The notes under the pieces are model-generated. The model was not told the origin of the DNA and searched no databases. It saw only the letters and a program-made list of their open reading frames with translations. Of a DNA stretch of 64,000 bases, positions 33,230 through 36,200 are shown in pieces; positions within the stretch are counted from its first letter, which is position 1; every line of letters starts with the position of its first letter. Source of the stretch: Thermoproteota archaeon. GTDB lineage: Archaea > Thermoproteota > Thermoprotei > Thermofilales > B9-G17. A program made the position numbers and the translations under genes. Where the stretch lies: assembly GCA_029258885.1 (NCBI GenBank), contig JAPDJW010000001.1, positions 36,089 to 100,088 of the forward strand, given 5' to 3'.

Positions 33230-36200
33230 AACGCACGTAAGCCGCCTGGTGGATGGCTCGGCTCGGGCGCCGAGGAAGGACGCGGCAAGCGGCGATATGC
33301 CCCGGGTAGACGCATGCAGTCGTCGAACCGGGGATCTCCGAATGGGACTTCCTGTTACGGGCGAATAGCCCGTAACGCTCGGGAAAGCCCTAGCTATGCT
33401 AGGGTGAGTACCGAGTGGGAACCCCCCGAACGGAAACATCTTAGTAGGGGGAGGAGAAGAAACCAAAATGGGATCCCCTGAGTAGGGGCGACCGAAAGGG
33501 GGAGAGCCCAAACCGAACCTGTAGGCGAAGAGTCTACAGGGATGTGGTGTTATGGACCCGACCGCTCCCTTCTCGGGGAAGCCGAAGTGGGTTGGAAAAC
33601 CCCGCCGTAGAGGGTGACAGCCCCGTAGGCGTAACCCGAGGGGGATTGGGTCGGTGTTCCGGAGTACCACGGCTTGGTTTTGCCGTGGGAAGTTGGGAGT
33701 CACCGACTTCCAAGGCTAAATACGTCCCGAGACCGATAGCGAACTAGTACCGTGAGGGAAAGCTGAAAAGAACCCCGAGAGGGGGGTGAAAAGAGCCTGA
33801 AACCAGGCGGCTACAGGTGGCACGGCCCGAAAGGGTAGATCCTCCCCGAAGGAAACCTGGGCGACCGGGAGTACGAGGGGAGGGGACCAGGGTCGTGCCT
33901 TGCGTCTGGAAACACGAGCCGGGGAGTTCACGGCCGTGGCGAGCTTAAGGGGGTCAGCCCCGAAGGCGTAGGGAAACCGACATGCCCACAGCCGGTACCT
34001 CTACTCTTAGCCTAGAACCCTGATTCATGACGGGTCCTAGGCTAAGGGCAAGTACTGGTGAGGGGCGGGGTCCGAAGAGGGCCTGGAGTCACGGCCGTGA
34101 GACCAGAAACCGAGCGATCTAGGCCGGGGCAGGGTGAAGCCAGGCGAAAGCCTGGTGGAGGCCCGAAGGGGTTCTGACGTGCAAATCGTTCCCATGACCT
34201 CGGCCTAGGGGCAAAAGACCAATCAAGCTCGGTGATAGCTGGTTCCCCCCGAAGCTGGTCCCAGCCAGGCCCGCCCAGAGGCGACCGATGGGGTAGGGCA
34301 CTGATTGGGAGGCAGGGGGCCGAAAGGCCTCACCTCCCTTTCAAACCCCGAATCCATCGGTGCCGAAGAAGGGTGGAGACGGGTTCCCGTGGATAAGCCA
34401 CGGGGCCGAGAGGGGAACAACCCAGACCGAGGTTAAGGCCCCCAAGTGCCGGCTAAGTGTCAATCTTAAAGGGCGTCCTCGGCCGTAGACAGCGGGGCCG
34501 TAGGCCTAGAAGCAGCCATCGGCTAAGAAGTGCGTAACAGCTTACCCGCCGAGGCCGAGGGCCCCGAAAATTGCCGGGACTAAGCCGGCCGCCGAGACCT
34601 CGGGGCACCCTCCGCTGGAGGGTGATCCGGTAGGGGGGCGTCCGGGTGGGCTAGAAGTCGGGCCGTGAGGTCCGATGGACCCGCTCGGATTGAAAATCCC
34701 GGCGGTAGTAACAGCAAAGAGGGGTGAAAATCCCCTCCGCCGAAAGGGCCAGGGTTCCTTGGCAATGCGTCGTCAGCCAAGGGTTAGCCGGTCCTAAGGC
34801 GGGACGTAACTCGTACCCGCCGAAAGGGAAACGGGTTAATATTCCCGTGCCGTGGGGGTACGATCGCGGTAACGCAAGCCCAACTCCTGACGCTTCGGGG
34901 TAGGGCGAGTGGGGTCGTCGCCCCATTTAACCGCTGAAGACCGGGGAGTGCCGTAATGGCGAGAACCGGTCGAAGGCGGGAATAGCCCGCCGTTTAAGGC
35001 GGGTTCGCCCGACCCCCGGAGCCCGTGAAAAGGGAGTTGGGAAGGAGCCCCCACGACCGTACCGAGAACCGACACAGGTGCCTCTGGGTGAGAAGCCCAA
35101 GGCGTGTCGGGGTTACCCCGGGCTAGGGAACTCGGCAAATTGGCCCCGTAACTTCGGGAGAAGGGGTGCCTGTGGTCTTAGCCAATAAGGCTGGGACCGC
35201 AGGTCGCAGTGACAAGGGGGACCCGACTGTTTAATAAAAACATAGGTCCCCGCGAGCCCGTAAGGGTGTGTACGGGGGCTGAATCCTGGCCACTGGCGGT
35301 ACGTGAACCCCGGGTTCAACCGGGCGAAGCGCCGCTGAAGGCCGGGAGTAACTCTGACTCTCTTAAGGTAGCCAAATGCCTTGCCGGGTAAGTTCCGGCG
35401 CGCATGAATGGATCAACGAGGTCCCCACTGTCCCAGCCCGGGACCCGGTGAACCCGCAACCTGGTGCACAGTCCAGGATCCCCCGGCGGGGCGAGAAGAC
35501 CCCGTGGAGCTTTACTGCAGCCTGTCGTTGGGATACGGTTACGGGTGCATAGTGTAGGTGGGAGCAATGAACTAACCTCTCTGGGGGTTAGGGATGCGCC
35601 AATGAAACACCACCCACCTGTAATCGTGTCCCTAACCCGGGAAACCGGGGACAGCGGCAGGTGGGCAGTTCGGCTGGGGCGGCACACCCCTGAAAAGATA
35701 TCAGGGGTGCCCAAAGCTCGGCTCAGGCGGGTCAGAAACCCGCCGTAGAGGGCAAGGCCAAATGCCGGGCTGACTGCGCCCTTGAACGCAAGGGGCGCAG
35801 GGGGGAAACCCGGGCCTAGCGAACGCTCGTGTCCCCCTCGGTGGGGGCCGGGCATGACAGAAAAGTTACCCCGGGAATAACCGGCTCGTCGCGGGCGAGA
35901 GTTCACATCGACCCCGCGGTTTGGTACCCAGACGTCGTCTCTTCCCATCCTGGCGGTGCAGCAGCCGCCAAGGGTGGGGCTGCTCGCCCATTAAAGGGGA
36001 ACGTGAGATGGGTTTAGACCGTCGCGAGACAGGTCGGTCTCTACCTGCCGGGGGTGCTGGCCGCCTGAGGGGAAGGTCCGCCCAGTACGAGAGGAACGGC
36101 GGGCCGTGGCCTATAGTCTACCGGTTGTTCGACAGGGCATCGCCGGGCAGCCACGCCATAAGGGATAAGGGCTGAAGGCATCTAAGCCCGAAGCCCTCCC

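Follow-up and report, generated by a model that had tools for sequence, protein, structure and literature searches.

A clade-typical divergent peptidyl-transferase centre in the 23S rRNA gene of a Thermofilales-like archaeon

A 64,000-nucleotide stretch of DNA from a Thermoproteota archaeon (contig JAPDJW010000001.1, hereafter the window) contains a 23S ribosomal RNA (rRNA) gene in which several normally invariant nucleotides of the peptidyl-transferase centre (PTC) are replaced. With a probability of roughly 0.9 this is the working 23S gene of a Thermoprotei archaeon that carries an inherited, clade-typical "divergent peptidyl-transferase centre". The trait is real, functional and lineage-typical, and it was described in 2023-2024 (Nissley et al. 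2023, NAR, PMC9976906; Nissley et al., bioRxiv 10.1101/2024.11.12.623245, hereafter the preprint). The evidence consists of the bases themselves, their invariance throughout the clade and a compensatory swap of the base pair 2509-2579 (all rRNA positions are given in Escherichia coli numbering).

The gene is a member of the archaeal large-subunit rRNA family, as it matches the Rfam model RF02540 over its full length and far above the gathering score of 50 (table 1). The variant bases are located in domain V, and the region 35780-36140 was aligned to this covariance model with a posterior probability of 1.00 throughout. All sequence strings quoted in the original prediction, which had been numbered by eye, are present at their positions in the window, and the alignment places the mismatches at the same positions (2447, 2453, 2500, 2501, 2504, 2509, 2554 and 2579), so the numbering by eye was right. 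Strongly conserved (upper-case) consensus bases are mismatched by G2447A (35876; model GGGGAUAAC, window GGGAAUAAC), by U2500C, C2501A and U2504C (35929, 35930 and 35933; model ACcUCGAUGUC, window ACCCAGACGUC) and, in the A loop, by U2554C (35983; model CUGUUC, window CUGCUC), and A2453C (35882) falls on a less conserved, lower-case "a". The neighbouring A2448, U2449, A2450, A2451 and C2452 are unaltered. U2555 (35984) is also kept, and the A loop is of the "CU" type, one of the rare Thermoproteota variants with C2554 that occur with or without C2555 (Nissley et al. 2023). The remaining changes, G2509U (35938) and C2579A (36008, within GTGAGATGGGTTT at 36003-36015), face each other in helix 90 and convert G-C into U-A, which the model marks as a compatible pair change and which bears out the compensatory relationship proposed originally. 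Two further departures from the archaeal consensus had been missed, namely C2055 instead of A (35492) and A2572 instead of U (36001). The bases A2057, G2058, G2061, A2062 and C2063 were read within 35492-35500, and G2061, A2062, C2063, A2451, A2503, G2505, U2506, G2583, U2584, U2585 and A2602 are all canonical. The possibility of G2061A, prompted by a single mention of "A2061" in the text of the preprint, was rejected for the window; the table of the preprint lists G2061 in 2,438 out of 2,439 archaea and the mention is probably a typographical error.

These bases correspond to a published state. An alignment of archaeal 23S genes from the GTDB revealed variation at as many as six positions within 2447-2453 and 2500-2504 in some Thermoprotei and Methanomethylicia, which carry A2447, (G2448), C2453, C2500, A2501 and C2504 (preprint). 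Pyrobaculum calidifontis varies at five of the six positions and its 50S/70S ribosome was solved by cryogenic electron microscopy (cryo-EM), and variation in the PTC of Thermoproteus tenax was known before (preprint). According to Supplemental File 3 of the preprint, A2501 is present in 84/2,436, C2500 in 206/2,436 and C2504 in 243/2,438 archaeal species, and in 8, 10 and 12, respectively, of approximately 40,500 bacterial species. In that file, the archaeal rows with the labels 2447-2453 look shifted by one position ("2450" is 99% U), and only the rows for 2500-2504 and 2061-2062 were used here. The window carries five of the six changes (A2447, C2453, C2500, A2501 and C2504, hereafter the block) and retains A2448, which is the same state as in Pyrobaculum oguniense (L013).

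The distribution of the block was surveyed in 185,579 GTDB species representatives with a scan that used conserved anchors and any non-U base at 2504 and that returned 44 loci. The scan is not a census, as it is blind to canonical copies and missed many named Thermoproteales including P. calidifontis; the non-appearance of Sulfolobales and Desulfurococcales was not used as evidence, and the limits of the clade were taken from the preprint. The entire block was found in 31 archaeal loci of the 44. These loci read GGGA[A/G]UAACCGG, ACCCAGACGUCGUCUC, CUGC[U/C]CGCC and GUGAGAUGGG, and over the aligned 23S segments their identity to the window is 75-92%, with the block invariant. C2554 is present in all 31, and A2448G and U2555C are added in most of them. 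The named carriers include P. oguniense TE7, which is represented by a complete genome, Pyrobaculum sp. WP30, Thermoproteus, Caldivirga, Vulcanisaeta and Thermocladium modestius, and the uncultured carriers include a Thermofilales metagenome-assembled genome (MAG), Nezhaarchaeales, Culexarchaeia (Culexmicrobium and Culexarchaeum), Methanomethylicia, SCGC AAA471-B05 and Gearchaeales-type MAGs (the lineage of JAJPJK01 was taken from the GTDB lineage strings in the supplement of the preprint). The other matches comprise seven Archaeoglobaceae loci with U2504C alone (L004, L012, L024, L034, L038, L043 and L046), a few bacterial MAGs with an isolated U2504G or U2504C, and one chance match in a protein-coding gene.

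The exact state of the window (A2448 and U2555) is matched by the Thermofilales MAG (L011) and by L003, in both of which the string GGGAAUAACCGG is identical; the Pyrobaculum and Thermoproteus loci have the same string except for A2444 in place of G. The closest named 23S is that of the same Thermofilales MAG (89.3% identity over 2.1 kb), together with two MAGs labelled "uncultured Thermoproteales", and in the Pyrobaculum, Thermoproteus and Vulcanisaeta loci the identity of the aligned segments to the window is 81-84%. A Desulfurococcales affinity, as the original prediction had implied, is not supported. A neighbour-joining tree of approximately 420 nt located 3' of the PTC, which is rough and has some branches distorted by introns, groups the window with block carriers including the Thermofilales MAG. 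By its best named 23S matches the organism belongs to one of the two GTDB classes of the published trait (Thermoprotei or Methanomethylicia), and the GTDB strings in the supplement of the preprint put Thermofilales in the Thermoprotei. The genomic GC content is low (40.5%) and that of the rRNA is 62.8%, a combination that is consistent with a hyperthermophile. Judged by its sequence, the organism appears to be a Thermofilales-like, hyperthermophile-type member of the Thermoprotei.

A second survey, of the JGI metagenomes, used the shared sequence of helix 89, in which each tested position was set to N, and matched at least 120 contigs. Among the 120 matches listed, 68 are canonical, 17 carry A2448G only and 32 carry the full block, of which 21 have A2448 and 11 have G2448. 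The string at 35926-35941 of the window is invariant in these 32 contigs, as it is in the 31 GTDB loci. Partial states were also found among these matches: one contig carries G2447A and C2501A without the cytidine trio C2453/C2500/C2504 (L079, 3650-3718) and another one carries C2501A only (L107, 1032-1100). The block is essentially all-or-none, with rare partial states. All 63 full-block sequences in which both bases are readable (31 from the GTDB and 32 among the listed JGI matches) contain U2509-A2579, canonical sequences contain G-C at this pair where it is readable, and one contig among the listed matches has independently swapped the pair to A-U (G2509A/C2579U in L139, 1532-1600). Position 2509-2579 is a genuine Watson-Crick pair that occurs in three pair types. 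C2055 is present in the full-block sequences wherever it is readable, except for L029 and L032. A strict linkage to the block was rejected for both A2572 and C2055, which were found in canonical-PTC JGI contigs (in a few contigs in the case of C2055).

The strings "2509" and "2579" occur 0 times in the main text of the preprint, and the 2055 feature is not mentioned there either. We consider it possible, though rather doubtful, that the published six-position description is incomplete and that the block also includes the U-A swap at 2509-2579 and nearly always C2055. If so, the partial states and the pair swap could allow the order and the epistasis of PTC remodelling to be reconstructed on the archaeal tree, and 2509-2579 could be a necessary accessory change when such PTCs are engineered. 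Relative to the main text of the preprint, the additions made here (the co-occurrence of the 2509-2579 swap with the block and the partial states in metagenomes) are both small.

Several features of the surveyed loci were observed in passing. The 23S gene of L003 contains an insertion of approximately 656 nt (~274-928) just 5' of the A loop, corresponding to window position ~35977. The insertion is probably an archaeal rRNA intron that encodes a homing endonuclease, as it contains an open reading frame (ORF) in which two motifs, LAGIIYGDGS and FFEAEGS, are LAGLIDADG-like. Additional introns are suggested for the Caldivirga, Vulcanisaeta-like, Thermoproteus and Pyrobaculum loci by breaks in the alignment at window positions ~35351-35391. 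Three MAGs labelled Campylobacteraceae, Actinomycetota and Caldisphaera (L017, L031 and L037) contain block-carrying, Thermoproteales-type rRNA that is Thermoproteaceae- or Vulcanisaeta-like, which looks like bin contamination in public MAGs. A2062U, a change of the normally invariant tunnel-sensor nucleotide, was found within GAGAAGUCCC in the Thermoproteaceae loci L013, L016, L017, L027, L030, L031, L036 and L041, approximately 430 nt 5' of the 2492 match (the window has A at the corresponding position 35499), as well as in several dozen canonical-PTC JGI contigs among the matches listed. U2062 is recorded in 242 out of 2,439 archaea in the table of the preprint and is not discussed in its text.

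The three-dimensional rearrangement that may accompany these bases, and its dependence on ribosomal protein uL3, are taken from the literature (preprint). The five core bases are as in the Pyrobaculum loci of the survey and agree with the count given for P. calidifontis, the partner positions named in the preprint are also in place, and the published mechanism is consequently the one best supported by base identity. The substitutions most probably represent an inherited, co-adapted set instead of independent events and form three groups: A2447 with A2501, the trio C2453/C2500/C2504 together with C2499, and C2554 in the A loop. In the P. calidifontis ribosome, A2501 adopts the syn conformation and forms a Hoogsteen pair with A2450 that replaces the C2063-A2450-C2501 triple, and the A2447-A2451 hydrogen bond is retained while the potassium site is lost and taken over by waters (preprint); the same flip of A2501, the same hydrogen bond and the same waters would be expected here. 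In that structure waters connect C2453, C2500 and C2504 with C2499 in a network, C2504 is flipped by 54 degrees and A2572 shifts away, a movement that the shorter archaeal uL3 allows (preprint). By analogy, the four cytidines of the window would form a denser water-mediated hydrogen-bond network with a tilted C2504, for which a shift of A2572, permitted by a short uL3 loop, would make room. C2554 may stabilize the A loop and add to its stacking. The net effect would be that the unchanged catalytic nucleotides A2451, U2506, U2585 and A2602 are positioned as in other ribosomes.

The role of uL3 was examined experimentally in E. coli. The uL3 region close to the PTC is lengthened in certain bacteria relative to archaea and eukaryotes, and E. 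coli ribosomes with A2453C/U2500C/U2504C retain 18% activity, which rises to 34% with ΔQ150-uL3 (preprint). The suggestion in the original prediction that the variant PTC co-evolved with its ribosomal protein environment thus stands in part, namely for the tolerance of C2453/C2500/C2504, which the preprint ties to the short archaeal uL3 loop. A six-frame motif search did not find the uL3 gene in the window.

Different causes may have led to the fixation of the block. The chance that it represents a thermostability adaptation or a contingent, neutral state that is locked in by epistasis, with no role in drug binding, seems to us to fall a little short of even. The A-loop variation U2554C/U2555C of the Thermoproteota stabilizes the E. 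coli 50S subunit against heat (Nissley et al. 2023). Furthermore, the single changes A2453C, U2500C and U2504C inactivate E. coli ribosomes or greatly reduce their activity and the triple mutant is more active than the single mutants predict (preprint), which indicates epistasis, and the natural partial states in L079 (A2447 and A2501), L107 (A2501) and the Archaeoglobaceae (C2504) indicate that stepwise paths are possible. However, the papers cited here report no thermal-stability measurement of the five core changes, and many hyperthermophiles live without the changes, a problem that was equally discussed for the A loop (Nissley et al. 2023).

A second potential cause is protection from natural inhibitors that target the PTC, which would result in intrinsic multi-drug insensitivity. 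The original prediction had pointed out that the changed positions are sites of laboratory resistance mutations and the preprint agrees: single A2453C, U2500C and U2504C changes confer resistance to linezolid, G2447A, A2453C and U2500C to anisomycin, and U2504C to chloramphenicol. The discussion of the preprint links four of the changes to resistance against linezolid, anisomycin or chloramphenicol, raises the same idea and names inhibitor evasion as one possible consequence. Yet inhibition data are absent for every ribosome of the clade, the block is confined to thermophile-type lineages while other hyperthermophiles keep a canonical PTC, the A-loop C changes show an effect on thermostability and not on drugs (Nissley et al. 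2023), and archaeal ribosomes hold U2504 in a flipped position even without these changes (preprint). Taken together, protection from inhibitors is an unlikely cause of fixation, and intrinsic drug insensitivity is speculation both here and in the literature.

The original prediction had further regarded the block as a novel remodelling of the drug-binding crevice that is special to this organism. The bases do differ from the archaeal consensus of Rfam, and for five of them the position is strongly conserved. Moreover, each changed position that is tabulated in the preprint occurs in <0.1% of bacteria. This view is nevertheless refuted and has next to no probability left: 31 named GTDB representatives carry the block, among them cultured Pyrobaculum, Thermoproteus, Caldivirga, Vulcanisaeta and Thermocladium, the trait is typical of lineages within the GTDB classes Thermoprotei and Methanomethylicia, and it has been described and structurally explained (preprint; Nissley et al. 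2023). Oddities specific to the window elsewhere in the 23S were also dismissed, since a comparison with 14 other full-length 23S sequences identified just 10 window-private substitutions at otherwise invariant columns and none of them lies in the PTC.

The integrity of the gene was assessed from independent assemblies. An identical copy of the protein gene directly 3' of the 23S is present on two other metagenome-derived assemblies (one from ENA and one Logan assembly of a sequencing run). The ENA contig (ERZ25515786 NODE_58) starts inside the 23S at window position 35939 and is identical to the 3' 429 nt of the gene (35939-36367), and two single-nucleotide polymorphisms relative to the window beyond the end of the 23S identify it as an independent assembly that confirms C2554 and A2579. 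A search of the JGI metagenomes for a second assembly of 35873-35941, using a pattern specific to the species in which the tested positions were left open as N, gave 0 matches. An artefact of sequencing or assembly, or an rRNA pseudogene that is decaying or unexpressed, might be suspected because the source is uncultured, the flanking protein occurs on only two other assemblies that are both metagenome-derived, and other assemblies of the locus start within the 23S, inside the rRNA operon, but this is extremely improbable given the high-scoring full-length Rfam match, the compensatory 2509/2579 change, the same bases in dozens of independent genomes and contigs, the identity with an independent assembly across the 3' 429 nt and the presence of these bases in native P. 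calidifontis ribosomes. From its sequence the 23S of the window reads as an ordinary, intact rRNA gene, and with the block invariant in its relatives the original proposal of a naturally remodelled PTC in a functional rRNA holds.

Some points weigh against a working, clade-typical divergent PTC in this organism. Support for the 5' half of the block (35873-35938) comes from relatives and from no second assembly of the same species, the genome is seen only through the 64-kb window so that a second rrl copy might be present elsewhere, and the evidence on structure and expression comes from P. calidifontis and not from the organism of the window. In addition, the window has U2555 and A2062 where the Pyrobaculum/Thermoproteaceae loci have C2555 and U2062, and any transfer of the A-loop findings is accordingly approximate.

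The coordinates of the features are collected in table 1. According to an Rfam scan, the window contains one complete archaeal rRNA operon and one 23S copy. The 16S-23S spacer is 138 nt long and a tRNA scan found no tRNA in it; a tRNA-Ile(GAU) gene is located approximately 300 nt 5' of the 16S, outside the spacer (31214-31290, plus strand). ORFs of 100-210 amino acids occur within the rRNA genes at 33125-33703, 34836-35138 and 35316-35948 (all on the minus strand and antisense) and at 31439-31843 (plus strand), and one of them overlaps the PTC variant block itself. These ORFs, almost certainly spurious, might be taken for hypothetical proteins in annotation.

Table 1. Features of the rRNA operon and of the PTC region in the window
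Feature	Position	Strand	Basis
16S rRNA gene, same operon	31589..33086	+	Rfam RF01959, 1544.4 bits
23S (LSU) rRNA gene, full length	33225..36367	+	Rfam RF02540, 2916.5 bits, model positions 1-2987 of 2987
PTC ring 5' strand, E. coli 2055-2063	35492..35500	+	Rfam alignment, base read-out
E. coli 2444-2455, GGGAATAACCGG / GGGAAUAACCGG	35873..35884	+	Rfam alignment, base read-out
E. coli 2497-2512, ACCCAGACGTCGTCTC / ACCCAGACGUCGUCUC	35926..35941	+	Rfam alignment, base read-out
A loop, E. coli 2551-2557, CUGCUCG (DNA CTGCTCG)	35980..35986	+	Rfam alignment, base read-out
Helix 90 3' strand and PTC ring, E. coli 2572-2586	36001..36015	+	Rfam structure line pairs 2509 with 2579
Sarcin-ricin loop, canonical, AGTACGAGAGGAAC / AGUACGAGAGGAAC	36084..36097	+	Rfam alignment, sequence match

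Beyond the operon, a JGI contig with the same PTC block (L141, 7276-9903) is syntenic with the window 3' of the 23S (36458-39117). Both share the order of a T2SSE-type ATPase gene (60.6% identity) followed by a KaiC-like ATPase gene (63.8% identity), indicating that local synteny beside the rRNA operon is conserved in the lineage. A 99-nt tRNA gene (46825-46923, plus strand) could not be typed by ARAGORN, scores 50 bits with the Rfam tRNA model and probably contains an intron. The window also encodes a full-length RNase P RNA of the conventional archaeal kind (10365-10670, minus strand, 153 bits, model positions 1-288). RNase P RNA is strongly reduced in the Thermoproteaceae, and the conventional form fits a lineage outside this family.

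The divergent PTC is of general relevance. It shows that the ribosome can have a different, co-adapted sequence in its "universally conserved" catalytic core, a point of consequence for ribosome engineering and for antibiotic binding. The literature has already made this point on the basis of a cryo-EM structure, of mutagenesis and of a census across the GTDB. The window contributes a further uncultured, Thermofilales-like member in the state that was to be expected and raises no new question.

Compared with the divergent PTC of P. calidifontis, the window shows the same count of five changes (G2447A, A2453C, U2500C, C2501A and U2504C in the window, with A2448 kept) and shares A2572, C2063, A2450, A2451 and C2499 as well as the GTDB class. 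The two differ in that the order of the window is Thermofilales-like and not Thermoproteales, and in that the window is known from sequence alone. C2554 fits the A-loop types of Nissley et al. (2023), who reported CU and CC within the Thermoproteota and linked CU mainly to the Nitrososphaeria and CC to the Thermoprotei; in contrast, CU is found together with the block in the window, the Thermofilales MAG, the Culexarchaeia and one Methanomethylicia MAG (L032). The laboratory resistance mutations of halophilic archaea affect the same positions and include in part the same changes (G2447A, A2453C, U2500C and U2504C), but those are single mutations with slow growth whereas the clade of the window has five changes fixed together and structurally co-adapted. 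Finally, a natural C2504 in a thermophilic archaeon is common to the window and the Archaeoglobaceae, which are otherwise canonical (G2447, A2453, U2500, C2501, G2509/C2579, A2055 and U2572) and represent an independent, single-position state.

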